From Candidatus Kuenenia sp. (GTDB lineage Bacteria > Planctomycetota > Planctomycetia > Planctomycetales > Planctomycetaceae), in assembly GCA_043775985.1 (NCBI GenBank), contig JAYVRU010000320.1, positions 1 through 62,017 on the forward strand: DNA of 62,017 bases. The letters are read 5' to 3'. Positions 19,966-53,192 of the stretch are shown piece by piece (the first letter of the stretch is position 1; each line of letters begins with the position of its first letter). The notes beneath the pieces are model-generated. The model ran no database searches. It was not told where the DNA came from and saw only the letters and a list, made by a program, of their open reading frames with translations. The translations under genes and the position numbers were made by a program.

Positions 19966-22401
19966 CTATCTTGCGCGCGTCGGTGGCGCACACGAATGAA
20001 TCATGTGCTTGCGGCCGCCGATGACTTCGTGAAGTGCCGGGCTCTGCAGTCGTGTCATCAGCCTTGCACCACCTCCCTCAGCGGCCCCCTGAAACGCGGT
20101 GTACCGTGCATAAATGTCGAAGTCGCCGCCGATTGTGTAGCCCAGCGAAACGCTGCTGACTCGTGTCGTGACCGCCTTCATCAGCAATCCGCTTTTGGTG
20201 AGCGACACGTCTTTCTCCCACTCGCCGCTTGCCAGTCGAAACAATTCCGGAGGCAATCCGTGCGTGGAAAAATTATGCTGAAACAGTGCATTCAGATGAT
20301 CGCGATCTTTGTCGAGAAAGTCAGACTGCGATCCGGCAAGTTCGTCTTCATCCGTGGTTGGCAGAGTTCGTCGCCAACTGCCTGTCCAGCGAATGTTGCG
20401 AACTCGCAGCCCCTCCTGATCGGCATAGTGAAAGAGTCCGAAGAATCGCTGGTTCGTTGCGGGAAGGGTTTGTTCGGCGATGCGTTCGCCATTGAGACTC
20501 AGTGTGATCACGTCACCACGGAGACTCACTTGCATGCGATTCCATCCGTCCTGCTTCAGCGGCAACGGGATTGAACGCGGCGACAGCGAAGTGAGGTTCG
20601 CCGGATCAGCGGAAGTTTGATCGTAAATTCCATCCGTAAGCTGATGCAGTCCCACAAAGTCATTGTTCAGGATGAAGCACATTCGGTCGATTGCCGGATG
20701 AGCACACTTCGCTCCTGCTTCGTAGTAGAACTCGTATTCGATCGTGCCGTCCTCCAGCATTGGTCGATGATAGTACAACGCTTTTTCGTTCATCGTGCCG
20801 TGGTCAGATGCTGGAAACCGTCGGCCGACGATTTCGTCATCATTCAGACTCCATGTCAGTTGCTCCCACGGATCTTCCACAGCGTAGTAGTCGAACCAGG
20901 AATCCAGCCCGGGGCCGATCAGGTCAATCGTTTCTGGAATCGTTGGTGATCCGGAGATCAGAACGTTTCTTGCACCACCTTCATTGAGGTGTCGGCTGCG
21001 AATCCCAATCCATGGATCTCGAATCTTTCCGAACGTGTCCTGCTGCACCTTGTTTCCGTCAAGCGAAACGTCAGCCGTTTGGCTCTTGATATTTGTTCGA
21101 TGACGATACCAGTGGTCCATGCGGGTCGTCGGTCGCTCAGACTTGAAATCGCCGATTTTGCGACGCACCGTTCCAACAGAATGAAGATCGGCCTGATGAG
21201 CAGTGCCAACCCAGCGTGCGCCGACGATCATCTCCGCTTCGCGCCAGTTTGAAACGGTTGCGTCCGCTTCGAGAGTCAGATCGCCCAGCAATGGCATGTT
21301 GAAGTAGACGGCATCGTCACCATGATTCGCAACATTGATGACCTGAGATCGAGTAAACAGCCATTGAGCAGGCGGCATTCCGACGCCTCGTCTGGCAGCC
21401 AACGGATAAGTGACTGGAGTCCAGAATTTTGGAGCATCGACGATCGACGGAATTTCCTCGAGTGTTTTCGAGGTCAGGTCTTCGATCATCGCGGGCGTCA
21501 TTCGAAACGCAAGCCGGGTGAATTGCCGAGACCAGACGTCCATGTACGTGGGCCATCGTTCCGGGACAAGGACTTGCCGGACGTAATCAGCTATCGCCTC
21601 TTTCAGTTCCGGCGTCGTCGAAGCTTTGAGCATCAACAGCATTTCATCAGCACGGTACTGGCTGTTATGCGGATCACTGGCATTCGTCAGTTTCAAGAAC
21701 GCATCACAGTCCGCCAAAGCATCATCCCTGTTGTTCGCTGCAAGCTCAAAGAGGCACCGAAATGCAGCCAGCTGTTTCTCTTCAAGGCGGTTGCGCGGCT
21801 TGATTTTTGCAACCGCAGTTCGAACCAAGGCCAGCTTGTTCAACTGTGTTGCAGTGTCCAGCAAATCCACGGCCGGACAGATAATCTCTCCACCAGTCGA
21901 AATACGCTGGTCGCCAGCCTCTATTGGTTCGCCTTCTGCCTGTGAGGGATAGGTCGGAGAAAAAGCGAGGTTCAACCGCAGAGAAGTATGAGCGTCGTTC
22001 GGCAGGACCCATTGAGTCAAAAATGTAAATCGATCCTGAGGAGACATCGCCATGGCTCGTTCATGAACCCCCAGCGCCGCGTCAACGACGTGATCCTCAG
22101 CAAAGATCTCGCCAAGAGCGCGAGATCCTGCTTCGGAAGTCTGATCCGCAAACGCTGGCTGTAAGTCGACTTTTGTTCGAGTCACAAGCGTGAGCCGCAA
22201 GCCGCTAGCCGCGTGTACCTGCCTTGTGTCTTCTAAACATTCACCCGCAGCCAGCGCTTTGCGGCTGACAAAAACAAAAGCCTGCGATCCGAAAAGTATG
22301 AGTACGACCACAACGCAGCACATCAAGTGACCACGGCATCTTTGGCACGGGTGATGTGCTTTAATTAACGAACGCAGCCGCAGGAAATTCATGGCGATCA
22401 T
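19966..22401 (-). CDS. Paralogue 1 of 7: secreted DUF1583-like family protein (C-terminally truncated architecture)
   Basis: Family motifs: DRFTFLTQWVLPNDAHTSLRL, GGEIICPAVDLLD, HGDDAVYFNMPLLGDLTLEA, DPWIGIRS, YYHRPMLEDGTIEYEFYYEAGAKCAHPAIDRM, FFGLFHYADQEGLRVRNIRWTGSWRRTLP. Only a partial C-terminal GDFD module follows. Confidence 0.85.
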   Translation of the reverse strand: MIAMNFLRLRSLIKAHHPCQRCRGHLMCCVVVVLILFGSQAFVFVSRKALAAGECLEDTRQVHAASGLRLTLVTRTKVDLQPAFADQTSEAGSRALGEIFAEDHVVDAALGVHERAMAMSPQDRFTFLTQWVLPNDAHTSLRLNLAFSPTYPSQAEGEPIEAGDQRISTGGEIICPAVDLLDTATQLNKLALVRTAVAKIKPRNRLEEKQLAAFRCLFELAANNRDDALADCDAFLKLTNASDPHNSQYRADEMLLMLKASTTPELKEAIADYVRQVLVPERWPTYMDVWSRQFTRLAFRMTPAMIEDLTSKTLEEIPSIVDAPKFWTPVTYPLAARRGVGMPPAQWLFTRSQVINVANHGDDAVYFNMPLLGDLTLEADATVSNWREAEMIVGARWVGTAHQADLHSVGTVRRKIGDFKSERPTTRMDHWYRHRTNIKSQTADVSLDGNKVQQDTFGKIRDPWIGIRSRHLNEGGARNVLISGSPTIPETIDLIGPGLDSWFDYYAVEDPWEQLTWSLNDDEIVGRRFPASDHGTMNEKALYYHRPMLEDGTIEYEFYYEAGAKCAHPAIDRMCFILNNDFVGLHQLTDGIYDQTSADPANLTSLSPRSIPLPLKQDGWNRMQVSLRGDVITLSLNGERIAEQTLPATNQRFFGLFHYADQEGLRVRNIRWTGSWRRTLPTTDEDELAGSQSDFLDKDRDHLNALFQHNFSTHGLPPELFRLASGEWEKDVSLTKSGLLMKAVTTRVSSVSLGYTIGGDFDIYARYTAFQGAAEGGGARLMTRLQSPALHEVIGGRKHMIHSCAPPTRAR

Positions 22402-22595
22402 CGTATACGTACTCCGGCAGGGCGATCGTAGACTTCAGCGTGCACATCGATCGACTTCACCAAGACGCGGGCTTTCTTCCCGACTGCACCGGTATGGAGC
22501 AGGCAATGCAAGACGATCGGGCCGTCGAAGTGCTCGGTCTGATGGATCATTTCATCGGGTTCCGCGTTCTCATCGCATCTCATTCCTGTGGCCAT
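22398..22595 (-). pseudogene. Orphan relic of the family's C-terminal module between paralogues 2 and 1
   Basis: The 65-aa ORF ends ...EMIHQTEHFDGPIVLHCLLHTGAVGKKARVLVKSIDVHAEVY. This is clearly homologous to the last residues of paralogue 3 (...KDHSAGPIVLHCLLHTGATKQHSSVLLKSIQIHADSY) and resembles the paralogue 7 tail (LLRALIHTGGDNRKTVIRFKSFRIQAE). Confidence 0.7.
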
Positions 22596-25500
22596 TCTGT
22601 TGTCGCCGGCGGAGTGGTTGCTGAGAATGCAATGGTTTTGCCATCTGGCGACCAGTCACCGCCGGGAACGTCCCAACTCTCGGGCTGGCCGGGCAGTAGT
22701 CTGAGATCTCCCGGAGCATCACGATTCACAAGGAACAGTTTCGCTGTCGTCACCGTCGGTCGCTTCAGGGAAATCAGAACCTGCCGTCCATCAGGACTCA
22801 TCGTGAACTCTTCATTAATATGATCCGGTCCATCGTAGACGACTCCGAATCCTGTCGCAGAATCCGCATCTGCAACGGCCACAACGAACCCGGTTGCATC
22901 TCGTTTGCGGGCTTTAAACGCGATCGCGTTTCCATTCTGTGACCAACCAATATTCCAATAGACGTAACTAAACTGAGCGGATTGTTCAGTAGTCAACAGC
23001 TGGCGGCGTTTGTTAGTCTTTGTGTCCAACAGAACAACATTGTTGCCGAGAGCAAATGCAATGCACAGACCATCAGGTGACCACTGTGCACCCCAGCCAT
23101 TAGCGTCAATCAGCTTTCTTTCAGAGCCATCAGCTTTCATTCTCATGATGCCGGTTGAAGGCTGACTGAAGACAATCTCTTTGTTGTCAGGCGAAAAACT
23201 TGGCATACAACCTGGGCCGAGATCTTTTATAGATCTGCCTTCACTGTTCATAACGACGATACGAGAAGTCTCAACGCCGCCTTTTGACATGTCGCCAATC
23301 AGTTTCCGTCCGTCCGCCGACCACTCGAACGATCCCAATTGAATGTATTCAGGGCGTGGTTCTGCCAGCAATCGGACATCGGTGCCGTCCACGTTCATGG
23401 CATAGAGGTTGGTCAGCGATTTCGCATTCGCGTCCGGCTTCAGGGTCAGTCGTTCAGCTCGAATGCTGATCGACTTCCACATGACGCTCGTTTCCCCCTC
23501 GCCACTGCACATGGTGTGGAAATGCAGACCATCAGCGACTGAGGCACTGTCAGAGATCTCCTCCGTTTCCAGCACTCGAAACACAGACGATTCATTCTCT
23601 GCAAACAAGTAATAGAGCGTCGTGCCGCGTCGCGCCATTCGCAGGCGACCAGTGGCGGCATCTGTCTTCCTGGGTGGACGAGCAGAAAACGAACGACCTC
23701 CGTCCTGATGAATTTGAGACAGCGACGAGTGCAGTTCCTGACGTTGCAACTCGTCTCGAATTCGCAGGATGCGGCACTGCCGTCGCTTTTCATCGCTCAG
23801 TTCGACCACAAGCATAATGCAGCCATATTCATCGCCGACGGCTTTGAAGTCTTCAAAGCCGATTTCCATGTCAAAGTCGCCGTGAACCATGAACGGCAGG
23901 TTTACAAAAGTATCAAACCACGGCCCGCCACCGGGACGATCGATTTTCCATCCGTCCTTTCCCGGGTTGAGGGTGTCGCCGGGCTGATTCCGTCCTGCCG
24001 GGAAAAACCGGGCTGGAACCCCAGCCTTTGCAAAATCGTGCGTAAAGACATCCGAAAGCTTTACAAGATCCGCGTCGAGTTGCTCGGGACGTTTGTCAGC
24101 GGCTTCCTGTTCTTTTGGGCCGGGAAGTGTTTTCGGCCAGCTGCCGCTCATCCTGACGTTGCGAACTTTGGCTTCAGTCTGATCAGCGAAATGAAACAGT
24201 CCGAAGACTCGATCATTGGACGCGTCGATCCTTGTTTCGCAGATCTGGTGTCCGTTCAGATGCACAGTCGCCCTGTCGCTGTTGACAGAAATCGTCAGTT
24301 GATTCCATTCGCGTGGTTTCAGCGGAAGACGCGACAACGTCGTTTCGACAGGCTGTAGCTCAGACAAATTCTCGGGGCCCAGTTCAGTGCGGTCCAGCGA
24401 GCCATCGGTCAACCAGTGAATGCGGGCACCGTCTGGCTGAAGACAGAGCACCATCCGATCGAGCGCCGGGTGGACCTCCGTTTTTCCAGGTTCGTAGAGG
24501 AACTCGTAAGACATGGAACCGACCGAATCCAAAGGCCGTTGATATGCCAACAGACTTTCGCAAAACGTTCCCGCCAGTGCGCCACCATGACCAAGAATCA
24601 CACCCGACGATTTTTCGTCCGGTAAGTGTTCCCAGACCGCGCCCGAAGTGCCGACTGACACTTCATAGTACGGATACCAGCCTCGAAGATCTTCTGTCGC
24701 CGAGAGATCGACCGTTTCAGGAATGACCGGATTGCCCGTGATTCTGATGTCCCGTGCGGCCGCATGCAGTCGCCACCAGTTTCGGACGGCAAACCACGGA
24801 TCAAGCGTTGTGGCCGCACGCTCAGTGTGTGCGACAAGTCCATTCAGACTGGTTGTACAAGTGCCGTCGTAGACGACGCTGCGATGGTGAATCCAATCAT
24901 CAAATCCGGAGAACTTCAGGTCGCTCGCGACTCGACGTGCGCTGTTTCGAAACGTTCCCATCCAAAGATGCGATCGGTCACCATCATTGCCAACAAACGT
25001 GCCGGCTGCCATGGTCTGCGTCGTAAACGCCGTGACATCGCATTGCACTTCATAGTCACCGGTGAGAGGACTTCGAAAGAACAAATAGTCATCATCGTGT
25101 CCGCTGATCTTGAAGACCTGGGAGCCTGCTCGCCCCCAGCGTGACGCGGCCAGACCGGGGCCGCGCGTGAGAGCTCTGCGACGGCTGATCGGAATCCATT
25201 GCGTCAATTCAGCTTCCTCAGGTGACGAAACCTTCGGAGCCTGAGATTCCCGGTGACCATGCTCACCGGCAAGCGACGCAATCTGTGTGTGCCAATTTAG
25301 CTCATTGGGAAGAAAATCGAGCTGCGTCCGTTGTGAAAACAGAAAGCCTAAGATCTCATCAATTCCCGGTGCGGTCTGCTTCCGAACAATGTGTCGATAA
25401 ACGACAAGAGTCTCCGGCCACATCTCCGACACGGCTTTCGGACGAGAATTCCGAACGAGCTGCAGGAGCTGATCCGTTGCCTTCGCGGCTTCGTCGTTCT

Positions 25501-25993
25501 TCTGCAGATCAAGATGGATCATCGTTAGCAGAGCGGTCTTTACTCGCAGTTGCTCGTCTGTTCCAGGTTCCGGAATTGCATCGACTTTCTGCAGCAGTTC
25601 GACAAGCCGATCTGACTTCTTCGCCAGATCCAGGAGATCGAAAACAGGGGAGACGATTCGTCCGCCACGTGCATGCTCTTCAGTCGCATCGAACTTGTTT
25701 CCAGGTGCGGGATTTGTCTGAGTGAAGTCGCCGGTCATGCGAATCGTAGCATGGTCCTCGCACGGAAGAACCCAGCTCACGAGCCGATCAAAACGTGCTT
25801 CATCCGACATTTTCGCCGCACGACCACATACGGCTGCAGCGTTGTCAGCGAGAATGACTTCTTCAAACAACGCCGCAACGGGTCGTGGCTTTGGTGCAGA
25901 CGGCGTTTGCTGCCGCTGTATGGCGATGACTCGATCGGCCAGGAGCAGGCAGGTGACGCACAGCAGTGTTCCAAGAGGCTTCATCGTTTTCAT
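22580..25993 (-). CDS. Paralogue 2 of 7: DUF1583-like core, one GDFD module and a TolB/PD40-like beta-propeller
   Basis: Family motifs: ARFDRLVSWVLPCEDHATIRM, GGRIVSPVFDLLDLA, GHDDDYLFFRSPLTGDYEVQC, AYQRPLDSVGSMSYEFLYEPGKTEVHPALDRM, VFGLFHFADQTEAKVRNVRMSGSWPKTLP. The C-terminal repeats are FEWSADGRKL, SFSPDNKEIVF, QWSPDGLCIAF, TMSPDGRQVL and DWSPDGKTIAF. I prefer the signal-like start MKTMKPLGTLLCVTCLLLA (25993 or 25984) over the track start at 26071. Confidence 0.85.
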   Translation of the reverse strand: MKTMKPLGTLLCVTCLLLADRVIAIQRQQTPSAPKPRPVAALFEEVILADNAAAVCGRAAKMSDEARFDRLVSWVLPCEDHATIRMTGDFTQTNPAPGNKFDATEEHARGGRIVSPVFDLLDLAKKSDRLVELLQKVDAIPEPGTDEQLRVKTALLTMIHLDLQKNDEAAKATDQLLQLVRNSRPKAVSEMWPETLVVYRHIVRKQTAPGIDEILGFLFSQRTQLDFLPNELNWHTQIASLAGEHGHRESQAPKVSSPEEAELTQWIPISRRRALTRGPGLAASRWGRAGSQVFKISGHDDDYLFFRSPLTGDYEVQCDVTAFTTQTMAAGTFVGNDGDRSHLWMGTFRNSARRVASDLKFSGFDDWIHHRSVVYDGTCTTSLNGLVAHTERAATTLDPWFAVRNWWRLHAAARDIRITGNPVIPETVDLSATEDLRGWYPYYEVSVGTSGAVWEHLPDEKSSGVILGHGGALAGTFCESLLAYQRPLDSVGSMSYEFLYEPGKTEVHPALDRMVLCLQPDGARIHWLTDGSLDRTELGPENLSELQPVETTLSRLPLKPREWNQLTISVNSDRATVHLNGHQICETRIDASNDRVFGLFHFADQTEAKVRNVRMSGSWPKTLPGPKEQEAADKRPEQLDADLVKLSDVFTHDFAKAGVPARFFPAGRNQPGDTLNPGKDGWKIDRPGGGPWFDTFVNLPFMVHGDFDMEIGFEDFKAVGDEYGCIMLVVELSDEKRRQCRILRIRDELQRQELHSSLSQIHQDGGRSFSARPPRKTDAATGRLRMARRGTTLYYLFAENESSVFRVLETEEISDSASVADGLHFHTMCSGEGETSVMWKSISIRAERLTLKPDANAKSLTNLYAMNVDGTDVRLLAEPRPEYIQLGSFEWSADGRKLIGDMSKGGVETSRIVVMNSEGRSIKDLGPGCMPSFSPDNKEIVFSQPSTGIMRMKADGSERKLIDANGWGAQWSPDGLCIAFALGNNVVLLDTKTNKRRQLLTTEQSAQFSYVYWNIGWSQNGNAIAFKARKRDATGFVVAVADADSATGFGVVYDGPDHINEEFTMSPDGRQVLISLKRPTVTTAKLFLVNRDAPGDLRLLPGQPESWDVPGGDWSPDGKTIAFSATTPPATTEWPQE

Positions 25994-26090
25994 GTCCCCA
26001 TTTGCCGCACGGCGGCAAGTGTCTGGTTCCCCGTTGATTTTACAACCGGACGTCAATTCTTCGCAGGCCATTCAACCGGTTGGGGTCATA

Positions 26091-29000
26091 CTACTTTTCC
26101 TCAACCGAATTTAAGTTGTTCTCGCGCACTGGCGTATATGAGTCAGCATGAATCTGAATTGACTTCAACAAAACGCTCGAATGTTGCTTTGTCGCACCAG
26201 TGTGCAACAGGCAGTGCAGCACGATGGGGCCAGCAGAATGGTCCTTCTGGTAGATCACGCGATCGCGTTCTGCGTTCTTCGGACGAGCGAGCATGGTGTA
26301 CGTTCCGCCGTGTCGCGCGATTCTCAGGGAAGAAACCTGGTCGATCTCAAAACCACCATTCCAGGAGTACTCATCTTTCCCGGTCGGCAGTGTTCTATGT
26401 TGCTGCGACGACACTTTGTATTCCGTCGGAGTCCGGACAAACATTGAGGCAAATCGAGTCCGGTCGCCATCGAGCAACTGCACCTGCCACATCAGGGTCG
26501 TAGTTCTTCCGGCGGACGGCAGTGCGAGGCTTGCTGCGTCGAACGTGAGTGTCACATCGAAATCGCCCTGAATGGGGTAACGTGAACCAAAGAAAGCGGC
26601 CACCCAGCCATCGACACCCTCGGACTCCATCGTCCAACCTTTGTCCGCAGCCTTCCATTCTCGTGCATTTCCAGGCAGGGAAAAATTCTGTGGGTCCGGA
26701 GCAATCTTCATAAAGTCATGAACGACGAACACGGGAAATTGTTCACGCTGTTCGTTCAGACGGTCAACCTCGGCTTGCTGATTCAGCATTGCCATGCCCG
26801 ACAGCCGTTCCGCTCTGACGGATAGAGTTGTCCAGACTGTGCGGCAATGTGCCCGATCCGCAGCAAAAGCGGAGAGACACAGATCGCCAACTCTCAGATC
26901 CTGATCTCCCACATCATCCGTGCCGAATAACCGAAACACGCTGGAATCGTTTTCCGCCACAAGATAGTGCAGTGTCGTCCCAAGTCGCACCAGCCGCAAC
27001 GTGCCCTCCGTTCCCTCCCAGGCTTTCCACTGAGCAGCCCCCTGCCGATTGCCCTCCGGGTCAAGGTGGACGACTTCATGTTTGATCTCCTGACGATTGT
27101 TCGGTTGCCTGGTTCGGGCAATCCGAATCTCCTGACGAGTGCCTTCAAGAGTCGCCATCAACTGAATCCCGGAAGCGCCAGACTCAGAAAGACTCAGATC
27201 TCGAAACGAGGCTCTCAGGTCGAAATCACCGCCAACCTGCAATTGAGTCTGCAGATCCGACTGCGTCCAGTTGACGTTGCTCTGGAGGTCGATCACCACT
27301 CCCTCTTTGCTGGCCATAATTGACGAATTGCTTTTCGAAAAAGCATGCCCCGGCAGTTCTGAGTTGCGGAAATCGTGAAGAAACGACTTTGGCAATTCGG
27401 CTGCGGACTTTTCGAGCTCGAATGTACTGTTCTGAACCAGAAGGGGTTGCATGACTTCGTCGAGCGTCTTCGGCCAGTCGCCAGTCCAGATCATGTTCCG
27501 CACACGCGCCCCCGTTTGATCGGCAAAGTGAAACAGTCCAAACTGTCGATGATTGGATTCATCGAGCTGGAACTGGAAAATTTCGGTCCCATTGACGCTC
27601 AGGGAAACGCCATCGTTTTGTATTGAAACCCGACATTGATTCCAGTCATTCGCCTTCAATCGGATCGGAGTTGAGCCACCGATCTCATTTCCTCTGATCA
27701 TGTTGACGGGAGATTCCGGCTCAAACTGGAAGGCACCGTCGGTCACAAAATATGTCTGGACACTTTCCGGAGTAAGCAGCATCACCATTCGATCCAGGGC
27801 CGGATGAACCATGAACTCGTTTGGCACATAATAGAATTCGTATTCAATGACACCGTTCTCAACCATTGGCCGATGATGTAAGAGAAGGTTTTCTGCCTGA
27901 GTCCCGGCAAGACCGGGCTTCTTTCTGGAGACAAGTTCAAGCTCATCAGCAGTCCCCGCCACGGTCATCCATGAATTGCGATCGAGAATCGCATTGTGAA
28001 CAGGCGCAGCCTCCGGAGAATCAAAGTAAGACCACCAACCCGTTAGCTCAGAGTCATTGATCATATTCACCGTTCGGGGAATCTGCGGATCGCCCGTCAC
28101 TGTCAGGTTGCGGAAAGAGCCATGTCGCTGGCGGCGAGATCGCAGGGCTACCCAGGGAAACGAATCACCGTGCAGCGTTCTTTGCAGATATTTTCTGCCA
28201 TTCACGTAATGTGTGCAGACGCCGTCACGAACAACAATGTGGGCACTCAGCCATTCATTCGGGTACGTCATGGGCGGATCCAGAGTCACCATCTCCTGAT
28301 TCAGCAAGCCACCAACTTCTGCTTTGCTGAGCAGCCAGTGGTGAGCCGCGTAGACTCCGGCATAGGCCAGCGCAATTTCTCGATAATTGAACGCTGTGAC
28401 TTCACATTCAACATCAAAGTTGCCGGTCAGCGGAATTGGCAAGTACAGAAAATCATTTGAGTGACCTCCGAGTCTCTGCGTGGTATTTCCCGATGCACGC
28501 CAGGCCGCCGATGGCCAGCCGCACCCGCGAGATTCAGCCGTCATGACTTCGGCAGGGATCCAGCCTTGAAACGTTCGTTGTTTGAGGTACTGCTCTTTCG
28601 CACCAATATCATCCCGCCGACTGACCCGCGCAAAGCACTGAAAAACGTAGTTATCCCAAGCGGTGCGGCCACTCCACCGAGCCTGATCGATTTGTCGGTC
28701 AAAAATGCACGCCGCGAAATCCTTCATCTCTAAAGCGTCGATAGAATGCTCCATCCCGTAAGCCATCGCCAGAGTTTCCGGCCACCAGCGAACGCCATGA
28801 TTCTCCCCGCGAACTCGAACCAGTTCTGTAAGCAGCCCCAGCAACTTCGCCGCCGATTCCGCATCCTTCTGGGCGACAGCGATCATATACAACAACGCCA
28901 GCCGCGCTCGTTCGCGATGCGGTTCGCCGGCATCGCCGACAGCTTCGACTCGCTGCCGAAGCTCGTCCAGCCGCCCGGTTTCTTCGGCGGCAGCAATCAA

Positions 29001-29327
29001 AGCAAAGACAGGCGAATAGATTCCGTCGGCAGTTGCATTCGGCGAAAATTGAGCGTAGGCCGGAATCGGATCGACCGGCGGAAACACAGCGTTCATCCGA
29101 TACTCAGATCGATGCGCTGAAGGCAGAACCCAATCCGCGAGAACTTCGTATCGCTGGTCAGCAAGCAGCGATTCCGACTGCCGCATTAAGGCACCGACGT
29201 TATCAGCAAGGACCGCATCGTCCTTCGCAAACAACGGAGCAACAACGGTCTTCGAATCGTCTGCCGCCGCTATGGAAGCGTTTGAGACAGGCCAAAGGCA
29301 GGCAAGGATGATAAGCGTTTGCAGCAT
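26091..29327 (-). CDS. Paralogue 3 of 7: DUF1583-like core plus two GDFD modules
   Basis: Signal peptide: MLQTLIILACLWPVSNASIAA. Family motifs: QRYEVLADWVLPSAHRSEYRM, GHSNDFLYLPIPLTGNFDVECEV, LLHHRPMVENGVIEYEFYYVPNEFMVHPALDRM, QFGLFHFADQTGARVRNMIWTGDWPKTL. Two modules contain GGDFDLRASF and QGDFDVTLTF. The tail reads IVLHCLLHTGA. Confidence 0.9.
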   Translation of the reverse strand: MLQTLIILACLWPVSNASIAAADDSKTVVAPLFAKDDAVLADNVGALMRQSESLLADQRYEVLADWVLPSAHRSEYRMNAVFPPVDPIPAYAQFSPNATADGIYSPVFALIAAAEETGRLDELRQRVEAVGDAGEPHRERARLALLYMIAVAQKDAESAAKLLGLLTELVRVRGENHGVRWWPETLAMAYGMEHSIDALEMKDFAACIFDRQIDQARWSGRTAWDNYVFQCFARVSRRDDIGAKEQYLKQRTFQGWIPAEVMTAESRGCGWPSAAWRASGNTTQRLGGHSNDFLYLPIPLTGNFDVECEVTAFNYREIALAYAGVYAAHHWLLSKAEVGGLLNQEMVTLDPPMTYPNEWLSAHIVVRDGVCTHYVNGRKYLQRTLHGDSFPWVALRSRRQRHGSFRNLTVTGDPQIPRTVNMINDSELTGWWSYFDSPEAAPVHNAILDRNSWMTVAGTADELELVSRKKPGLAGTQAENLLLHHRPMVENGVIEYEFYYVPNEFMVHPALDRMVMLLTPESVQTYFVTDGAFQFEPESPVNMIRGNEIGGSTPIRLKANDWNQCRVSIQNDGVSLSVNGTEIFQFQLDESNHRQFGLFHFADQTGARVRNMIWTGDWPKTLDEVMQPLLVQNSTFELEKSAAELPKSFLHDFRNSELPGHAFSKSNSSIMASKEGVVIDLQSNVNWTQSDLQTQLQVGGDFDLRASFRDLSLSESGASGIQLMATLEGTRQEIRIARTRQPNNRQEIKHEVVHLDPEGNRQGAAQWKAWEGTEGTLRLVRLGTTLHYLVAENDSSVFRLFGTDDVGDQDLRVGDLCLSAFAADRAHCRTVWTTLSVRAERLSGMAMLNQQAEVDRLNEQREQFPVFVVHDFMKIAPDPQNFSLPGNAREWKAADKGWTMESEGVDGWVAAFFGSRYPIQGDFDVTLTFDAASLALPSAGRTTTLMWQVQLLDGDRTRFASMFVRTPTEYKVSSQQHRTLPTGKDEYSWNGGFEIDQVSSLRIARHGGTYTMLARPKNAERDRVIYQKDHSAGPIVLHCLLHTGATKQHSSVLLKSIQIHADSYTPVRENNLNSVEEK

Positions 29328-29410: not shown

Positions 29411-31450
29411 CTACTCGAGCGCAACCAGTTTCTGCAGTTGTTCGGGAGACAGCTTCTCCGGCCAGTCTCCCTTGAGTACCACGTTGCGAATTTGCACGGC
29501 CACCGTATTGCGGTCGTGATAGAAACCGATATGACGATTGAAAATGTCCGACACAGGACGCTCGTAGATCTCTTCACCGTTGAGCGACAGACTGACTTTG
29601 TTATCCGTCAGCTTCATGACGACAGCATTCCAGTCAGCAGCCTTCAATGGCAGCGACTTTGAACCTCGGCGATTGAGTGGTTCCACGATCGAATTGTCAG
29701 CGGCAAGACCTGTCCATTCGCTGGCGTTGTCGGTCAGCCAGTGCATGCGAACTCCACTCGCTTCGATCAGAAATGTGAGTCTGCCCAACACAGGATGGAC
29801 GGTCGTCTTGCCTTCGTCATAAAAGAACTCGTAACTCAGCGATTCGCCGTCAAGCAACGGCCGCATATAAGCGAGGTGACTTTGAGCCACTTTGTCCGTT
29901 TCCGGAGCAGCCGCCATGCGACCATGAATGATCCCTTCAGCCACATGCCAATCGGTCGGGTCCGTGGCTGGCGTTGCAGCGAGATCCGGCTGAAATGGTA
30001 CGATGGCTTTCGGAACCGTCTCACTATACGTCGCTGTCCAACCTCGTAAATCGCTGCTGTCCGCAATGCGAACTTCTCGAGGAATCACGGGCTCGCCAAC
30101 CAATTCGAGATTTCGGAAGTACACTCGCCCGTCCCCGAACGCATGCAGACCGAGCCATGGGCAACTGCTGCTGGACGCTGCAGGTTCGTTAAATCCAGGA
30201 TGAAGATTTGACAGGAACGTCACCTTTTCACCATCGCGGCGAATGTTGACTCGATTAAACATTCGTAGTTCTTTGGGAGCGACAAACGGCCAGATACGTT
30301 TTTCAGCACGCGATCGCTGCACTTCCCGCAGTGTGAATGCTTCTGCGTTCGCGTCGAACCCCAGACCACCGTAGGTCATTCCGGCTCCACCATGATCCAG
30401 CGCCGTCACTTCGCCCTTGAGTTCAAATGATCCAGTCAGCGGATATTTGAACAAGAGCAGATCGTCACCAGGCCCTGCGAGTCGCTTGATGTGCTCTTCA
30501 TGAGTCAGCCAGATCACTCGATCGGAACCAGTTGATAATCCGTCATGCTTCTGTTCATTCGCTGCAATCCACAGTTCTGGCGTTTCATAAAGAACAGTGG
30601 CCGGATTTATTTCCGGGCTGCGATTCTTCAGGATGACGGTCGCTCTCAGGCGCCTCAGAAACGCGATATGCGGCGAAGTGCCCTTAGTGAAATCGAACTG
30701 ATTCAGGCGTTCTGCGATCTGCTCACATACAGGCCCCAATCCGGTTCGCGTCATTGCGGCTGACATGAGCACAGCATCATTCAAAGCTGTTGCTCGAGCG
30801 TCTTCGCCTTCCGGTGCGACTCGGGCTGTGAGTTTCGCTATCAAGTCTGCATCGGTCGTGCGAGTGTCGCGGATCTTTGCCAGAGTCAGTACGAAGTCCG
30901 CGTTGGTCACCTTTTTTTCAGCCAGTCTTTCGAGTTCGCTGATCAGTTGCCGCAGACTGCCCGCATCGTCAGCCGCAACGATCATCGTCCATGCTGAACA
31001 AAACAGCCCCGGCATATCGCCGACCATCGAGACGGCAAAGGATTCCTTCTTCGGTCGCTGCCCAAGTGCTCGCGCGAATTCCATGGGAGGAGCGATCTCC
31101 GGCACAAGCGACGTCAGCACTCGTAACGGATTTGTCGCGTCCTTTTGAATTGACCATTTCCGTAGCAGATCGTACTGCTCGTCGGTGCCGAGTTGCGCCA
31201 GTGCTCGGTGCATTCCCCCCGAAGCCGCTGACAACTTTTTAAGGAATGGATCCTCTACAAGAACAGTCTGCGGATCGAACGATTCAAGAGCCTTGAGGGC
31301 TTTGGGAATGTCGTCATCATGCAGAGCATCGAGAACGGCTTTGTTCAATGCAGTTGTTGCCGATGCCGCAGCGGCATCTGGCTGCGATTGGGCGACTGTC
31401 GAGATCTGCAGTGCGACTGCAAGAAAAAGAATAAGAGAAACGGTTCGCAT
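29411..31450 (-). CDS. Paralogue 4 of 7: shortest and most divergent member (core only)
   Basis: Signal peptide: MRTVSLILFLAVALQISTVAQS. Family motifs: GPGDDLLLFKYPLTGSFELKGEV, LAYMRPLLDGESLSYEFFYDEGKTTVHPVLGRL, LPLKAADWNAVVMKL...LSLNGEEIY, HIGFYHDRNTVAVQIRNVVLKGDWPEKL. The protein ends right after the core. Confidence 0.85.
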   Translation of the reverse strand: MRTVSLILFLAVALQISTVAQSQPDAAAASATTALNKAVLDALHDDDIPKALKALESFDPQTVLVEDPFLKKLSAASGGMHRALAQLGTDEQYDLLRKWSIQKDATNPLRVLTSLVPEIAPPMEFARALGQRPKKESFAVSMVGDMPGLFCSAWTMIVAADDAGSLRQLISELERLAEKKVTNADFVLTLAKIRDTRTTDADLIAKLTARVAPEGEDARATALNDAVLMSAAMTRTGLGPVCEQIAERLNQFDFTKGTSPHIAFLRRLRATVILKNRSPEINPATVLYETPELWIAANEQKHDGLSTGSDRVIWLTHEEHIKRLAGPGDDLLLFKYPLTGSFELKGEVTALDHGGAGMTYGGLGFDANAEAFTLREVQRSRAEKRIWPFVAPKELRMFNRVNIRRDGEKVTFLSNLHPGFNEPAASSSSCPWLGLHAFGDGRVYFRNLELVGEPVIPREVRIADSSDLRGWTATYSETVPKAIVPFQPDLAATPATDPTDWHVAEGIIHGRMAAAPETDKVAQSHLAYMRPLLDGESLSYEFFYDEGKTTVHPVLGRLTFLIEASGVRMHWLTDNASEWTGLAADNSIVEPLNRRGSKSLPLKAADWNAVVMKLTDNKVSLSLNGEEIYERPVSDIFNRHIGFYHDRNTVAVQIRNVVLKGDWPEKLSPEQLQKLVALE

Positions 31451-31484
31451 ATTGTCAGTGTCTTTCGAAATGATTTCTTCTATT

Positions 31485-31679
31485 GAGCCACAAGGCGCTA
31501 GCCGCGGATGTTGTATTTAGTCCTACCCGAGTTACTTCCGTTTAACCCGACTCGAAGAGGAGGCAGGGCACTTCATAACCTCCTCTGCGAGTCGGGTTAA
31601 ACAACTCGATGAACACGTGCCTGGCCGCTCGTGTCGTCACATGATTATATCAACACCCGCGGCTAGCGCCTGGCGGCTC
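31485..31679. repeat. Composite element A: REP unit (fwd), 24-bp-stem hairpin, REP unit (rev)
   Basis: Forward unit gagccacaaggcgctagccgcggatg at 31485-31510. Hairpin arms gtttaacccgactcgaagaggagg (31540-31563) and cctcctctgcgagtcgggttaaac (31579-31602), with 1 mismatch. Reverse unit cacccgcggctagcgcctggcggctc at 31654-31679, abutting the stop of paralogue 5. Confidence 0.9.
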
Positions 31680-34600
31680 ATGGTGGCGGTTCGGCTGTGA
31701 ATACAATTTGATGTCCGTCGGGTGACCAGTCGCAATCGATGATTCTCCAGTTGCGTGGCTGGCCGGGAACGGGAATGAGTTTCTCTGGATCATCGCGTTT
31801 GACAATAAACATCTGAGGTGTCCCGGTGGGTGGATCGAGCCCGGAGAACAGTACCTGATTTCCATCCGGATGCCACGACACATCGGAATGCAGTCGAACA
31901 CCCGTACAAAGAACATTCAGCTCATCGGGCTTGTCGAGATCGATCGCCACGATGGCGACAGCATCGCCCTTATCTTTCGTCAACCTGGTTTTGAAAGCCA
32001 GCGACTTGCTGTCACGAGACCAGCCGATTCCCTTCTCAATCGCGCGAAATGGCGACGGCTGGTCGTCTGACGGGATCAATCGCTGCTCATCAGTTTTCAC
32101 GTCCAGCACAACGATCCGCTTGTTTGAGATCCACGCGATGAAGCGACCATCCGGGGACCATGCACCACTGTGGCCGGCTGGATCCAGATCTTTCGCGACA
32201 ACATTGCCGCCAGTCGCGGGAATGATTGATACGCCCCGCCCATCGTTCGTAATAGCGATTTTTGAGCCGTCCGGTGAGAGGCTCGGCAAAGTGCCGATCG
32301 CGAACGAACGCTGTTGAGAGTTGCTTAACGTGATTTGACTGAGAAGAGAATACTGGCCGTTGTTCATTTCATAGATGATGGACTTGCCATCGTGAGACCA
32401 CTCGGGCCACTTCAATTGCAAGTACACTTCACTGGCGTCCGCAAGCTTTTTGACCTTGTCTGGTGCAGGCGTTTGAACTTTCTGGTCATCAGGAGGAGCA
32501 GAGTTGTCTACATCAAGAAGGTAGAGATTTCTAAGTCCCAAACGCCTCGCGTCTTCAAGGGACTCTGCCCGGACTGAAATCTTCTTCCAGATCGCGCTGA
32601 CCTCGGAAGCTTCAGCACCCTGAGCATAGCAACTTATCCTCAGCAGAAAGTTCCCGGACAGAATGGGGATATCGGGTCCTGCCATTGAATGCAGCAGACG
32701 GAAATTATCGGAGTCCAGCGGGGCGATCAAATAGTGCCACATCGATCCACGCCGAGCCACACGCAGCCGCCCCGAACGACATTCATCTCCAAAAATAGCC
32801 GGATATTCGTAGCGAAATCCTTTGGCCCCTGAACTCAGTATCTCGACCTGGGTGAGTTCTCGAAGAGGAGTATTGGGATGCTGAACCATGCCGCGAAACA
32901 ACAAATGGGCTTCGAACTCCTTCTGGATCACTCGAGGCCCCAGATAGATTGCACAAACACCGTTGTCTGACGCCATGAGTTTGAGGTCAGAGAACTCGGC
33001 GATTACATCAAAGTCGCCGGAAATCACCATTCTTGGACCAACGGATGAAGTAGAGGACTCTTTCGGCCCAGCCGCCCCACGCATATGCAAACCATCGGGG
33101 CTTTGAAAAACATCCCAGTTGCTTTTATCCGACCCTCGCGACGACGTAACCAATTTGCCATCGACGATGCGTTGAATCTGAACCGATTGGCGTTTGTTGT
33201 CAGTGATCACAAATTCCGACTCAACTTCTTCATCAGTCTTGTCAGTGAAATCGAAATCGAAAAACTCCGCCAGTGCGTTGCGATCGCGGTCCAGAACGTC
33301 AGTTTCAGTTCCTTGCAGTTCCTGTTCCGCGACGGCTGGAACGAGCTTTGGCCAGTCGCCTTTCAGGACCACATTTCGCACCCGAGCTTCTGTCTGATCG
33401 CAGTAATAGAACAGTCCGAATGTCCGATCATTTGTTGCGGCGATCTCGGATTCATAGATCACGACTTCTTTCAGCCGCAGTCGGATAACATCGCCCGTCA
33501 TCTGAACAGCCATCCGATTCCATTCGCCGGACTTCAGCGGCAGGGAATCCACGGCAACGCGGTTGCCAGGTGCTGTTCGATTCAGCGGATCGATACTGGC
33601 TGTTTCCCAAACTCCGTTAGTCGTATCGTGGCACTTGACCCCGTCGCGTTCGAGCAGAAACGCTCTGCGACCAAGAGCAGGATGCACGATCGAATTTCCA
33701 TCCTCGCAGAAGAACTCGTAGGTGACTTCGCTGTCCCAGACAAGCGGCCAAAAGTACCGCAGCAATCGCTCAGCCCCCGTACCAGAAAGCTCCGGACTAT
33801 GTTGGCCGACGATTTGCGTTACACCCAAAGCGTCCGATTCCAGCTTCCATGAATTGTCGTCCGGGGTCCACGGATCTTCGTGCCAGGGATTCCAGCCCAG
33901 AAGATGCGAGACTGGTCTTTGCTGAGTGGCCGTTGAGTCTATGCCATCGCTCTCAAGTTTTGCGGACGCCTCCCAGGCTGCGGAACGAAGTTCTGAAATC
34001 CTCACTTCATCAGGCACTACGGGCTCGCCAGTGATACGAACATTCTTAATACTGCCAACACCACTGCTCAGATTTCGAATCGCGAGCCACGGATCATGCT
34101 CCTTTGGCAGAGTGTCGCGAGAAATCAGTCGACTGTTAATGTACCGCGAACAAACGCCGTCTCGCACATCGACTCGAAAACGAAGCCAGTTGTCAACTCG
34201 CGAAAGTTTGGGCTGCAGTTTGATCTCAGGATCAACACGATACATTTCACCAGTCTGCACAGACTCATGATGCCAAACCGGCGTGATCCATCGGCCATTG
34301 ATCAGCGGATGAATCTCCTTCCAGCCAAAGCCGGTACACAGACATTCCAGTGTGTAGTTGCCGCGCAGGGGGCTCGTGAACAACAGAAATTCGTCATCCT
34401 GTTTCGCAAAGACATCGACTTTGCCATGACTGGATTGAATATGTCCGGGAGGCATCCCAAGCCCGTTGGACCAGGAATGCGAACGAGTCACCCAATGCCA
34501 GGACTTCAAGCCCGGTGCTGCCGTCCAGGGCTGAATTCGTTGCTCGGGCGGCAACTTATGATGTCGTATGCGACCAATCAGATGGATTATCAGAACGTCC

Positions 34601-35349
34601 CATTCGGTGGGACCATGCGACTTGCCTGCGTGAATTTGTGAGTCTTCAATGCTGGCCAGAAACAACAAGGCTTCGTCGAGCAACAACACACCTCGCTCCG
34701 CCGCCGTCCAGAGCAGCAGAGTTTCAGGCATACGATCCTGTAGTCCATCAAATCGTTGGTTCACAAAACGCTGGTAGAGTTCATCAGTACTGCGAGCCGC
34801 CTCATTCAAATCCCCCTTTGCGATCGCAATCATCGCCAGCAAAGAAAACTGACATCGCTGCTGAACCTCCCCCTGCACGGTGGCGGACTGCACGGCAAAT
34901 CGCAGTTCATCCAGCTTGCCCAATTCTTTTGCTGCGTCAATCAAATCAAAAACGGGCGACACGAAAATGCCGCCAGTGCGAATTCGATTTTGAGTTCGCT
35001 GAACCCCCGCCTGTATTCTGGCCACATCAACAGGATGATTCGAGACTACCGATTCCGGTGGGTCGGTCGACGTTAATTTTCCGAGCAGTCGAAACTCCCG
35101 GTGCTGTTTCCCCGGCAACACGTGAGATTTGAGAAGCTCATACCGAGCGTCCACAGGGAGACTCTTCGCCGCCTCGCGCAGCCCAAAGACGTTATCTGAC
35201 ACCACATCGTTTTCGAACAAATCACCAACATCAATCGCTGCCGGCTTGTCATCCGCCAAGGCGCAGCATGAAGCAATGCTCAACGCCATCATCACAGCTG
35301 GCAGCAAGAGGCGGATCTTCAACAGAACAATTTGGACGGCTCGGTTCAT
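31678..35349 (-). CDS. Paralogue 5 of 7: DUF1583-like core, one GDFD module and a TolB/PD40-like beta-propeller
   Basis: Family motifs: ARYELLKSHVLPGKQHREFRL, GGIFVSPVFDLIDAAKELGKLDEL, KQDDEFLLFTSPLRGNYTLEC, DPWLAIRNLSSGVGSIKNVRITGEPVVP, VTYEFFCEDGNSIVHPALGRR, TFGLFYYCDQTEARVRNVVLKGDWPKL. Propeller repeats: EWSHDGKSIIY, SLSPDGSKIAI, AWSPDGRFIAW, SWHPDGNQVLF, DWSPDGHQIVF. Confidence 0.9.
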   Translation of the reverse strand: MNRAVQIVLLKIRLLLPAVMMALSIASCCALADDKPAAIDVGDLFENDVVSDNVFGLREAAKSLPVDARYELLKSHVLPGKQHREFRLLGKLTSTDPPESVVSNHPVDVARIQAGVQRTQNRIRTGGIFVSPVFDLIDAAKELGKLDELRFAVQSATVQGEVQQRCQFSLLAMIAIAKGDLNEAARSTDELYQRFVNQRFDGLQDRMPETLLLWTAAERGVLLLDEALLFLASIEDSQIHAGKSHGPTEWDVLIIHLIGRIRHHKLPPEQRIQPWTAAPGLKSWHWVTRSHSWSNGLGMPPGHIQSSHGKVDVFAKQDDEFLLFTSPLRGNYTLECLCTGFGWKEIHPLINGRWITPVWHHESVQTGEMYRVDPEIKLQPKLSRVDNWLRFRVDVRDGVCSRYINSRLISRDTLPKEHDPWLAIRNLSSGVGSIKNVRITGEPVVPDEVRISELRSAAWEASAKLESDGIDSTATQQRPVSHLLGWNPWHEDPWTPDDNSWKLESDALGVTQIVGQHSPELSGTGAERLLRYFWPLVWDSEVTYEFFCEDGNSIVHPALGRRAFLLERDGVKCHDTTNGVWETASIDPLNRTAPGNRVAVDSLPLKSGEWNRMAVQMTGDVIRLRLKEVVIYESEIAATNDRTFGLFYYCDQTEARVRNVVLKGDWPKLVPAVAEQELQGTETDVLDRDRNALAEFFDFDFTDKTDEEVESEFVITDNKRQSVQIQRIVDGKLVTSSRGSDKSNWDVFQSPDGLHMRGAAGPKESSTSSVGPRMVISGDFDVIAEFSDLKLMASDNGVCAIYLGPRVIQKEFEAHLLFRGMVQHPNTPLRELTQVEILSSGAKGFRYEYPAIFGDECRSGRLRVARRGSMWHYLIAPLDSDNFRLLHSMAGPDIPILSGNFLLRISCYAQGAEASEVSAIWKKISVRAESLEDARRLGLRNLYLLDVDNSAPPDDQKVQTPAPDKVKKLADASEVYLQLKWPEWSHDGKSIIYEMNNGQYSLLSQITLSNSQQRSFAIGTLPSLSPDGSKIAITNDGRGVSIIPATGGNVVAKDLDPAGHSGAWSPDGRFIAWISNKRIVVLDVKTDEQRLIPSDDQPSPFRAIEKGIGWSRDSKSLAFKTRLTKDKGDAVAIVAIDLDKPDELNVLCTGVRLHSDVSWHPDGNQVLFSGLDPPTGTPQMFIVKRDDPEKLIPVPGQPRNWRIIDCDWSPDGHQIVFTAEPPP

Positions 35350-41692: not shown

Positions 41693-41953
41693 GAGATCCT
41701 CTTTTGCCATTCCAATTGACGTCCTCAGAATCCACGCGGTCAATCAGGGGATTAACATCCCCCGCTCGCCGAAGCCATGCATCAACCACGATCGCTGCAG
41801 TATAACCAATGCAGCGCCAGATGACGGAACGACGTTTCACCATGCCTCACTTTGGTGCCAGCGATCCCATCGCTGTCGTCCAAACCCGTGGAATCACGCG
41901 GTGAATTTCTGAGAAAGCCGTGTTCCGAAATGCCACGGTGCTTTTGAATTAGT

Positions 41954-47086: not shown

Positions 47087-47868
47087 TCATGGGGTATCTG
47101 AGGTGGCCGACTCCTTGAATGGCGGCTCAGCTGTGAACACGATTTGACGTCCGTCCGGTGACCAGGCGCAGTCGATAATTCGCCAGTTGCGTGGCTGGCC
47201 GGGAACGGAGACTATCGTTGCAGGTTTGTCGCGTTGCCCGGTGATACGGACGTTTTTCACAATGCCAACACCGCTGCTCGGATTGCGAATCGCGATCCAC
47301 GGATCATGCTCTGTCGGTAGTTTCTCCTGCAGAGCAAATCGACTATTGATGTATCACAAATCAATTCATTGCCCGTGACGCGAATGATGTTTGGTTTCTC
47401 AGTGTGCTCGTCATCCGGGGAGGCAAAGTAATCGATTGTCCAGGTGCCTTGAAGAGACTTGAGTCGTGCGGCGATTTCTTCAGGCGCGCGTTGATTCAGA
47501 ACGGAGGTCGTCTCGGACGCCGCTCCCTCTTGTCCAAGCGCCTGTGGAAACATCGATTTCAATTGCTCCACGGGCGCCGCCAGCAGCAGATTTCGCATGT
47601 CGAGCGACTGCTAAGTCTGCAACAGGCGAGTCTGCATCTCGAGCAGCTCGGCCCGCAGCAGGCTTTGTCGCAAAGTGAACGCTCGCCGCAAGGCCGTTCG
47701 CAGCTCGGCGTTCTTCCCCGCATCCGGAGTTTGCCGAAGCGACGCAGCCAGATCATGAGCCTGCTTGTTGGCGGTTTCGTAGTCGATTCGCAATTGAACG
47801 ATCTTCAACGCGATAGGGTTTGTTGCCGTGTCCGTTGCTGGTTCAGCTTCTTCTGACGAGCGTGGCAC
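47087..47868 (-). pseudogene. Chimeric pseudogene: coiled-coil / LQGTW-domain N-part (in-frame TAG) fused to an internally deleted paralogue-5-like fragment
   Basis: The minus strand reads ...RAELLEMQTRLLQT*QSLDMRNLLL..., with a TAG at 47611-47613 in frame with ORF 47257-47598. It continues ...LKSLQGTWTIDYFASPDDEHTEKPNIIRVTGNELI. After a frame change it reads YINSRFALQEKLPTEHDPWIAIRNPSSGVGIVKNVRITGQRDKPATIVSVPGQPRNWRIIDCAWSPDGRQIVFTAEPP...*. The DNA at 47111-47215 matches 31681-31790 and 47228-47345 matches 34011-34150, at roughly 80-85% identity judged by eye. Confidence 0.7.
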
Positions 47869-53181: not shown

Positions 53182-53192
53182 TGTAAGTAATT

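Follow-up and report, generated by a model that had tools for sequence, protein, structure and literature searches.

An open reading frame in a DUF1581/DUF1583 gene array of Candidatus Kuenenia sp. as the very probable remnant of a deleted eighth paralogue

What is the origin of a 65-codon open reading frame (ORF) that lies wedged between two members of a tandem gene array? The window analysed here, i.e., the whole stretch of 62,017 nucleotides (nt) of DNA from Candidatus Kuenenia sp. (contig JAYVRU010000320.1), has on its minus strand an array of seven paralogues (p1 to p7; 19966-41743), which consist of DUF1581, DUF1583_N and between zero and two DUF1583 C-modules. The ORF (22398-22595, minus strand) is situated between p2 and p1. 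An earlier note on this DNA offered two versions of its origin: either a propeller-encoding segment replaced most of a second module of p2 and stranded its last codons, or an intervening paralogue was almost completely deleted.

All seven paralogues are encoded on the minus strand. p1 (19966..22401) is a damaged copy with a partial C-module; p2 (22580..26071; 1163 amino acids) comprises DUF1581, DUF1583_N, one C-module (about 23414-24112) and a PD40 propeller (about 22583-23401); p3 (26091..29327) has two C-modules; p4 (29411..31450) has none, and has the same end in its orthologue on the related contig L019 (81% identical); p5 (31678..35349) has one C-module and a PD40 propeller, with no stub behind it; p6 (35637..38294) has one; and p7 (38363..41743) has two. 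These module counts, taken from Pfam, agree with those of the earlier note, whose “GDFD module” is Pfam PF07622 (the DUF1583 C domain). The seven paralogues, together with a gene from related contigs designated pX, match PF07619 and PF20407 (with or without PF07622) above gathering scores and in the canonical order (E 1e-14 to 1e-56), the matches for the pX pieces and for the p2 orthologues being precomputed hits. The NCBIfam search gave no match for any piece, and nothing relevant to the family came up in literature searches on DUF1583, DUF1581 and the Pfam accessions. A neighbour-joining tree of the core did not resolve the branching (bootstraps 43-70%) and did not pair p2 with p5, so that it neither proves nor excludes an ancient transfer of the propeller.

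The ORF shares the last 16 nt of p2 in a different frame, as the earlier note had correctly described, along with the peptides it quoted. The gene caller's version is 61 amino acids long and starts from the ATG at 22583, which is overlapped by the stop codon of p2 (TGA, 22580-22582) in the form ATGA. At the other end, the ATG of p1 (22399-22401) overlaps the stop codon of the ORF, again as ATGA. The ORF comprises the first ~8 codons (22572..22595, minus strand, encoding MATGMRCD; compare MAAEMNRL in L019) and the last 57 codons (22401..22571, minus strand, encoding the last three β-strands of a second DUF1583 C-module) plus the stop codon of a paralogue of ~1078 amino acids. The junction between these two parts lies within the start remnant, at about 22572-22577, where we infer the exact breakpoint to within 6 nt on either side; there is one extra base at 22574 relative to the related contig L010. 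The junctions are not assembly artefacts, because independent Logan contigs from two sediment-metagenome runs cover 19300-23300 with zero differences. A scan of 22100-22800 for sigma-70 promoters and intrinsic terminators found nothing, but such a scan is not informative for planctomycetes.

The family to which the ORF belongs can be seen from its alignments. Positions 22571-22428 match the terminal segment of the second module of p3 (26136-26279), as had been noticed from the letters alone, with 58% identity over 48 amino acids (tblastn, E 2e-14); blastp against the p3 tail gives an E of 1.9e-16, and the nucleotide match is also significant (72% over 85 nt; blastn, E 3e-7). As any two extant paralogues are only 23-33% identical (blastp), this similarity is far above chance and above the family background. 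The match to full-length pX tails extends along the entire ORF and takes in the terminal VR.R-stop (65% of amino acids in L011 and 63% in L013; E 1e-23 to 1e-25), and overall the ORF can be aligned to PF07622-bearing tails, namely those of p3 and of the proteins P0003 and P0005, with 58-65% identity (E 1e-14 to 1e-25). Scans of the ORF against Pfam and NCBIfam were without a match, and among 5.8 billion proteins searched the only database relatives were the window's own ORF and its copy in L010. Given that the p3 tail is the best match within the window, the 3′ end of p3 might have been copied downstream of p2 by gene conversion or recombination, as part of an ongoing exchange. This is hardly conceivable: in nucleotides, the ORF is nearer to pX of other genomes (71-74%) than to p3 of its own genome (61%), its terminal VR.R-stop/ATGA junction with p1 is specific to pX and absent from p3, and it is found at the same place in L010 and in L001.

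In related metagenome contigs (L019, L012 and L011), the position between p2 and p1 is taken by pX, a two-module paralogue of ~1078 amino acids. The order in L019 and L020 is the p4 tail, the p2 orthologue and then a gene whose ATG lies within the last 16 nt of p2 (the overlap being ATGGCCGCTGAAATGA in these contigs and ATGGCCACAGGAATGA in the window) and whose product is 46% identical to amino acids 6-443 of p3. The first 38 nt of L012 equal the last 38 nt of L019, and L012 carries the L019 protein on to the pX tail. In L011, the stop codon of pX overlaps the ATG of p1 (CGATGAT), likewise in the window, L010 and L001; pX is thus joined to both neighbours exactly as the ORF is. The full picture is pieced together from these overlapping short contigs, as no single one carries p2, intact pX and p1. 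The closest extant relative of pX is p3 (46-52% identical), and in the L019/L012/L011 lineage pX has one in-frame TAA. A metagenome scan with the p3/pX tail alignment gave no confirmed locus; a second, with p1, gave only 5′-truncated copies of p1 and a distant homologue, none with pX upstream; and a genome scan with p1 found L001 and L002, whose contigs both end or are rearranged just upstream. The spacer between p4 and p2 in L019, checked for a remnant of p3 (p3 having been lost there or gained here), contains only a REP-like element.

The same contigs bear on the version in which a propeller displaced most of a second module of p2 and stranded its last ~50 codons. This version has in its favour that a propeller takes up, in p2 and p5, the place that module 2 has in p3 and p7, and that the homology to a module end begins 8 nt after the p2 stop. 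However, the p2 orthologue of L019 has identical last codons and an identical stop, and pX starts within its last 16 nt as a gene of its own; the presence or absence of pX makes no difference to the C-terminus of p2 (...EWPxx-stop), and this natural end is conserved in L010 and L019. Thus, with the 3′ end of p2 unaltered next to a full-length pX, the propeller replaced nothing. Moreover, the ORF is 58-65% identical to the p3 and pX tails, whereas p2 is only 29% identical to p3, and the ORF has kept pX's own start codon. The propellers of p2 and p5 (PD40, PF07676; scores of 39 and 48.6 bits, the cutoff being 20.9) have the same junction with the module but share no more than 35% identity, which makes the fusion ancient, as old as the paralogues; it also occurs in the metagenomic planctomycete proteins P0006, P0011, P0012, P0014 and P0017. 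Replacement by a propeller is therefore very unlikely and the propeller architecture of p2 and p5 is unrelated to the ORF, while the other version offered in the earlier note, the near-complete deletion of an intervening paralogue, is borne out by pX in the same slot. L022 was considered as a case of the propeller as a separate cistron, and was rejected when the break proved to be a frameshift inside module 1.

The ORF is, with high confidence, the remnant of an eighth, p3-like paralogue after internal deletion, probably in one event, i.e., a result of gene decay and not of domain swapping. The array would once have had pX, with two modules and closest to p3, between p2 and p1. In the lineage of the window, a deletion of about 3 kb, probably a single, non-homologous and internal one, would have removed codons ~9 to ~1020 (~1,010 of 1,078), leaving the start of pX, its last 57 codons and its stop, which would now be read as a 65-codon ORF. 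A full-length homologue occupies the same syntenic slot (its start in L019, its continuation in L012 and its end in L011), and only ~65 of ~1078 codons are left in the window, without the signal peptide or the domain cores.

How little of a protein is left can be seen from the fold. In an AF2 model (pLDDT 88.5, pTM 0.86), the C-module is a β-sandwich of 13 strands, of which the stub retains the last three (strands 11-13). The fold is ConA-like (Foldseek probability 1.00, TM 0.55-0.66), and PL7 lyases, L-type lectins and GH16 head the 185 PDB matches that reach E ≤ 1e-3; in Pfam, DUF1583_N also matches PF06439 and Laminin_G_3. The segment resembling a signal peptide which pX has in L019 (RLRFFATLLLTLPW...) is absent. 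The stub is most probably non-functional, because the signal peptide is lost and only three of the 13 ConA-like strands are kept. It has probably persisted since any further deletion would impair p2 at its end or p1 at its start.

The stub is old, because it is also present in L010, a relative with 89.7% nt identity to the window and an identical p2/stub/p1 junction. In L010, the stub has a 1-nt indel and a premature TGA, 5 codons early; an ORF opens there 1 nt past the p2 stop and closes 15 nt ahead of the p1 ATG. In L001, only about 35-40 of the stub codons are kept, there is a 7-nt indel and an IS3 upstream, and there is no ORF ≥50 amino acids. Between the window and L010, the stub has diverged faster than p2 (15.2% versus 9.3% of nt; 19% at fourfold sites of p2), its 26 differences falling 8/4/14 by codon position in this single comparison, with a dN/dS of 0.27 and 13 amino acid changes against 17.5±2 in a neutral simulation (P=0.028). 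The identities to L001 by codon position are 0.80/0.80/0.54, and five sequences share an invariant 13-nt core, TGAAGTCGATCGA. The dN/dS and the simulation are weak evidence, at the sequence level, that some residual constraint may act on the stub, and the coding-like pattern of substitution between the window and L010 is not predicted for a completely neutral remnant.

Could the stub, then, now be maintained as a small gene, encoding a peptide of 54-65 amino acids or serving as a bridge that couples initiation of p1 to termination of p2 via the ATGA overlaps? As well as the substitution pattern and the invariant core, the reading frame would agree with this: in the window it runs uninterrupted from the stop codon of p2 to where p1 begins, and in L010 it opens 1 nt after the p2 stop. 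However, the constraint signal consists of 26 substitutions in one comparison; the periodicity against L001 can date from an intact pX, since the truncations there are independent; the start is shifted between the window and L010 by the 1-nt indel, L010 stops early and L001 has the 7-nt indel and no ORF of that size; the peptide would be three sandwich strands without a signal peptide; the copy of p1 in this genome is itself a damaged one; and the ORF has no Pfam or NCBIfam match. A maintained gene is unlikely, and an independently conserved small gene, which the earlier note had regarded as fatal to its reading, is not what was found: start and stop vary among the window, L010 and L001, and the databases hold only the L010 copy. 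The mini-ORF may still be translated, because the deletion kept the pX start over the p2 stop and the pX stop over the p1 start. If it is, and if selection keeps it open, it would be a small ORF that arose from what a deletion left at either end of a gene.

The remnant of pX is not the only lesion in the array and its surroundings. A second, p5-like stub (47087..47353, minus strand) is a DUF1581 fragment fused in frame to a propeller tail: amino acids 403-442 of p5 (70% identical) are joined to amino acids 1184-1222 (77% identical), and it is what is left after near-total deletion of a p5 duplicate. Its junction, the sole one that can be compared with a close parent, has ≤3 nt of microhomology to the p5 parent sites, which indicates illegitimate deletion rather than exchange between members. 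Homology of p1 to its 1084-amino-acid orthologues, which have two full modules, stops at 19993/19994 after ...KHMIHS, so that module 2 is missing entirely and module 1 by half, and its partial module is a 3′ truncation. Its N-terminal coding region also has a palindromic REP-like element of about 100 nt (22170..22275, minus strand), an in-frame insert of ~41 extra codons that is absent from the L001 orthologue. At 19564-19773, a Pfam scan gave no match for a possible response-regulator tail. Different deletions affect each of p1, p2 and pX in related genomes.

The truncation of p1, the 47-kb stub and the deletions in related genomes show the same process at work, and because of this the differences in module number are better explained by birth-and-death with deletional loss than by swapping of modules. 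The domain swapping and ongoing recombination among members proposed in the earlier note find no support in a stub shared with a relative that is ~10% diverged, the microhomology at the 47-kb junction, the ancient propeller junction or the truncation of p1. The reading of the locus is corrected accordingly: repeated deletional loss in a birth-and-death array, not cassette swapping, with an ancient propeller fusion. In annotation, the label of hypothetical protein should not be given to 22398-22595, which needs a flag as a remnant; p1 should be marked as truncated, and 47087-47353 as a second remnant. The locus is an example of how an internal deletion can yield a clean, in-frame mini-ORF, start plus tail, that gene callers report as a gene.

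Several known systems can be compared with this locus. The models of the planctomycete DUF1581/DUF1583_N/DUF1583 family (PF07619, PF20407, PF07622) are found in the canonical order in p1-p7 and pX, while the stub by itself is too short to match any of them. The C-module can be superposed on ConA-like lectin/glucanase β-sandwiches (PL7 alginate lyases, L-type lectins, GH16 and Pfam 3keto-disac_hyd/DUF1080) as a two-sheet jelly roll, at a sequence identity of 6-13%; this establishes only the fold class. The predicted fold is a first functional lead: the proteins of the family would be secreted and multi-lectin-like, and they may bind glycans. Stand-alone “TolB family” proteins of ~300 amino acids from planctomycetes share 30-35% identity with the C-termini of p2 and p5. 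In p2 and p5, however, the propeller is fused to DUF1583 proteins, and nothing points to a Tol-Pal role.

A stranded 3′ gene end directly downstream of a full-length member, as here, could recall the orphan C-terminal modules of rhs/cdiA polymorphic-toxin genes. Displacement of those orphans runs through a conserved junction motif that they have in common with the main gene, and a cognate immunity gene accompanies them. In contrast, the stub has no junction motif in common with p2 (upstream of the junction, the sequences of p2 and the stub are not similar, and homology to pX begins within ~10 nt of the p2 stop), it has no partner gene (the next gene is p1, a member of the family), it is a fragment of a structural β-sandwich, and its parent is a separate gene. 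The locus also resembles bacterial pseudogene erosion and birth-and-death in tandem arrays: there is a syntenic full-length counterpart elsewhere, most of the coding sequence is lost, relatives have further frame breaks, sister members have independent lesions, and the junction that was checked, that of the 47-kb stub, is non-homologous. It differs from the usual erosion in that the deletion spared both the start codon and the stop codon of pX and, in the window, the frame, with both ends overlapping the neighbours, an outcome that is tidy but not unprecedented.

The array comprises seven minus-strand paralogues, p1 (19966-22401, 811 aa), p2 (22580-26071, 1163 aa), p3 (26091-29327, 1078 aa), p4 (29411-31450, 679 aa), p5 (31678-35349, 1223 aa), p6 (35637-38294, 885 aa) and p7 (38363-41743, 1126 aa), all of which belong to the planctomycete DUF1581 (PF07619) and DUF1583_N (PF20407) family (Pfam) and share only 23-33% identity with one another. 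The "GDFD module" of about 200 amino acids described in the earlier note is real and corresponds to PF07622, the DUF1583 C domain; Pfam also bears out its counts (none in p4, one in p2, p5 and p6, two in p3 and p7, a partial one in p1) and the PD40 repeats that close p2 and p5. The window was recovered in two sediment-metagenome runs, and the related contigs (numbered with L) come from Fuerstiella-like Planctomycetaceae MAGs. A literature search for DUF1581/DUF1583 proteins found nothing on them.

Between p2 and p1 lies an ORF of 65 amino acids (22398-22595, minus strand), here called the stub, which, read in a different frame, takes in the final 16 nt of p2 and has a TGA that overlaps the ATG of p1. 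The observation that its end resembles the end of p3 is confirmed: the final 48 residues of the stub share 58% identity with residues 1017-1064 of p3 (tblastn E 2e-14; blastp E 1.9e-16), with 72% DNA identity to the p3 tail over 85 nt. The tail of p7, proposed as a second comparison, gave about 37% over 27 aa only; the match thus singles out the p3 lineage and far exceeds the family background. Logan contigs from two runs, assembled independently, span 19300-23300 with zero differences to the window, so the stub junctions are real.

The stub preserves the start and the tail of a lost eighth paralogue, pX, which is p3-like and full-length between p2 and p1 in related contigs: a real, well-observed feature with an ordinary explanation, and a new instance of a known phenomenon. 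The only relative found with the stub as query was a 54-aa ORF on the 1.6-kb contig L010, which has 89.7% DNA identity to the window and the same order of p2 propeller, stub and p1 start. The second module of p3 as query yielded three proteins (P0003, P0004 and P0005), two of which, the pX products, have tails closer to the stub than the p3 tail is: 65% and 63% amino acid identity across all 57 codons, 71-74% nucleotide identity (versus 61% for p3), and the shared ending '..VR.R-stop'. On L011, pX and p1 overlap at the stop of the former and the start of the latter (CGATGAT), an arrangement also seen for the stub in the window, L010 and L001. At the other end, contigs L019 and L020 have, in order, the end of a p4 orthologue (81% identity), a p2 orthologue (66-75%) and the start of pX, the ATG of which lies within the last 16 nt of p2 (ATGGCCGCTGAAATGA; window counterpart ATGGCCACAGGAATGA) and the product of which shares 46% identity with residues 6-443 of p3. 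L019 ends in 38 nt that are also the opening 38 nt of L012, and L012 carries the L019 protein onward (…AYFDDSVADAVD…) as far as the pX tail. Thus, the start in L019/L020 and the end in L012/L011 together give pX as a two-module paralogue of about 1078 aa between p2 and p1 that overlaps both neighbours. The array probably once had pX in this position, and an internal deletion probably took codons ~9 to ~1020, leaving as the stub a start ('MATGMRCD') and a tail ('ENAEPDEM…VRIR-stop') that meet at about 22572-22577.

Of the two histories offered in the earlier note, the near-complete deletion of an intervening paralogue is right, as full-length pX occupies the slot in relatives; the other, in which a propeller segment replaced the second module of p2 itself, is wrong. 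The last codons and stop of p2 are unchanged in L019, where pX is full-length; identity to p3 is only 29% for p2 versus 58% for the stub; and the module-propeller junction is common to p2 and p5, yet their propellers are just 35% identical, which makes the propeller architecture about as old as the paralogues. DUF1583-PD40 fusions are present in further metagenomic planctomycete proteins, and the propeller shares 30-35% identity with free-standing "TolB family" proteins of ~300 aa. An NJ tree puts the second module of p3 together with those of p7 and the p1 orthologue (92% bootstrap), so the two-module form is ancient. In the NJ core tree, which has weak resolution, p2 and p5 do not pair; on this tree a very old propeller transfer may or may not have occurred.

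The stub is not recent, judging from its identical junction in L010 at about 10% DNA divergence. In L001 (p1 80% identical), the last ~35-40 pX codons are kept directly before p1, with a 7-nt indel, and a pair of IS3-family transposase genes lies at L001 105-1224, ~650 nt upstream of this pX stub (Fuerstiella MAG), which suggests that an IS-associated rearrangement removed pX independently of the deletion in the window.

Deletion is a general habit of the array. The module reported as partial in p1 is indeed so, by 3′ truncation: homology to the 1084-aa two-module orthologues stops at 19993/19994, after '…KHMIHS', followed by unrelated sequence and a stop 8 codons on, whereas in L001 (1084 aa) and L002/L015 the orthologous genes carry on through the remainder of module 1 and a complete module 2. 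A second, p5-like stub (47087-47353, minus strand; Pfam DUF1581 and PD40), located 5 kb upstream and outside the array, consists of p5 residues 403-442 (DUF1581, 70% identical) fused in frame to 1184-1222 (propeller tail, 77%), which implies that a duplicate of p5 was deleted almost in its entirety; the gene-sized ORFs just upstream of it (47257-47598 and 47611-47868) gave no family matches. This is the only stub with a junction that can be compared to a close parent, and the microhomology of 3 nt or less points to illegitimate deletion rather than recombination between members. Hence, neither the "domain swapping" nor the "ongoing recombination among members" of the earlier note is supported; deletional birth-and-death evolution is, with the array losing pieces in several lineages. 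Contig L011 mirrors the window, with pX full-length and p1 reduced (1261-2098) to a 249-aa ORF of ~15 N-terminal codons joined to the last part of module 1 and to module 2; pX in L011/L012 has an in-frame TAA in module 1 (L011 440, L012 1088). The p2 orthologue of L019/L020 (683-3318) is missing module 1 together with the first blade of its propeller, with 62 nt in place of the 834 nt that correspond to window 23300-24133, and is split into ORFs of 653 aa and 236 aa, as two assemblies show; this lineage has no p3 between p4 and p2. In L002/L015/L017, p1 is 5′-truncated and frameshifted, and lesions in more distant p2-like genes include an in-frame TGA in module 1 (L021 4943) and a module 1 frameshift in five contigs (L022 ~2750-2980, also L023-L026). 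Such frequent lesions across metagenomes may be real decay or assembly errors driven by microdiversity.

The stub has evolved under mostly relaxed conditions: it differs from L010 at 15.2% of sites (p2 9.3%, p2 4-fold sites 19%), and the L010 copy has its start shifted by a 1-nt indel and its TGA five codons early. It seems improbable that its translation matters, for coupling p1 to p2 or as a peptide, but some observations point that way: the differences from L010 are unevenly spread over codon positions (8/4/14; dN/dS 0.27), with 13 amino acid changes where neutral simulation expects 17.5±2 (P=0.028), the stub is tied to p2 and p1 by ATGA overlaps at both ends, and the L010 ORF still runs from 1 nt past the p2 stop to 15 nt short of the p1 ATG; however, this signal comes from a single comparison with 26 substitutions, and in the window p1 is itself a damaged gene.

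Several features of the neighbourhood were observed. Palindromic elements of a REP/MITE-like family (half-site about GTGAGCCGCAAGGCGCTAGCCGCGGGTG) occupy intergenic spacers, near 31484-31506, 31645-31681, 35541-35565, 41940-41984, 53190-53306, 54677-54852, 56640-56668, 56960-56979, 61317-61456 and 61956-62009, and also the p4-p2 spacer of L019. One copy of ~100 nt (22170-22275, minus strand; hairpin ΔG -57.5 kcal/mol) lies in frame in the N-terminal region of p1 as ~41 extra codons, which the L001 orthologue lacks. Truncated p1 and a DUF1559/N-methyl gene (18327-19367) are 600 nt apart, and in this gap the segment 19564-19773 (plus strand) reads '...DAGFNGHLVKPVDFAALEKLL...' on the strand opposite the array; by eye it looks like the final part of a response-regulator receiver domain, possibly a third gene tail left stranded, with no match in Pfam or NCBIfam. 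A Ser/Thr kinase of 1777 aa that carries long WD40 arrays, the abutting ECF sigma factor ORF directly before it (12469-13173; together 7139-13173, minus strand), and an FHA-EAL protein (13942-15069, plus strand) are unrelated to the stub.

An AlphaFold2 model of the p3 second module, built from a 10-sequence alignment, is a 13-strand β-sandwich (pLDDT 88.5, pTM 0.86). Of these strands the stub covers just 11-13, and it has none of the hydrophobic segment at the N-terminus of pX, so that, going by the model, it is unlikely to fold or be secreted independently. The family is predicted to consist of secreted proteins, each a chain of lectin-like sandwiches: DUF1583_N also matches the 3-keto-disaccharide hydrolase and Laminin_G_3 models (Pfam), and the modelled module matches, in Foldseek, the ConA-like lectin/glucanase folds of PL7 alginate lyases, L-type lectins and GH16.
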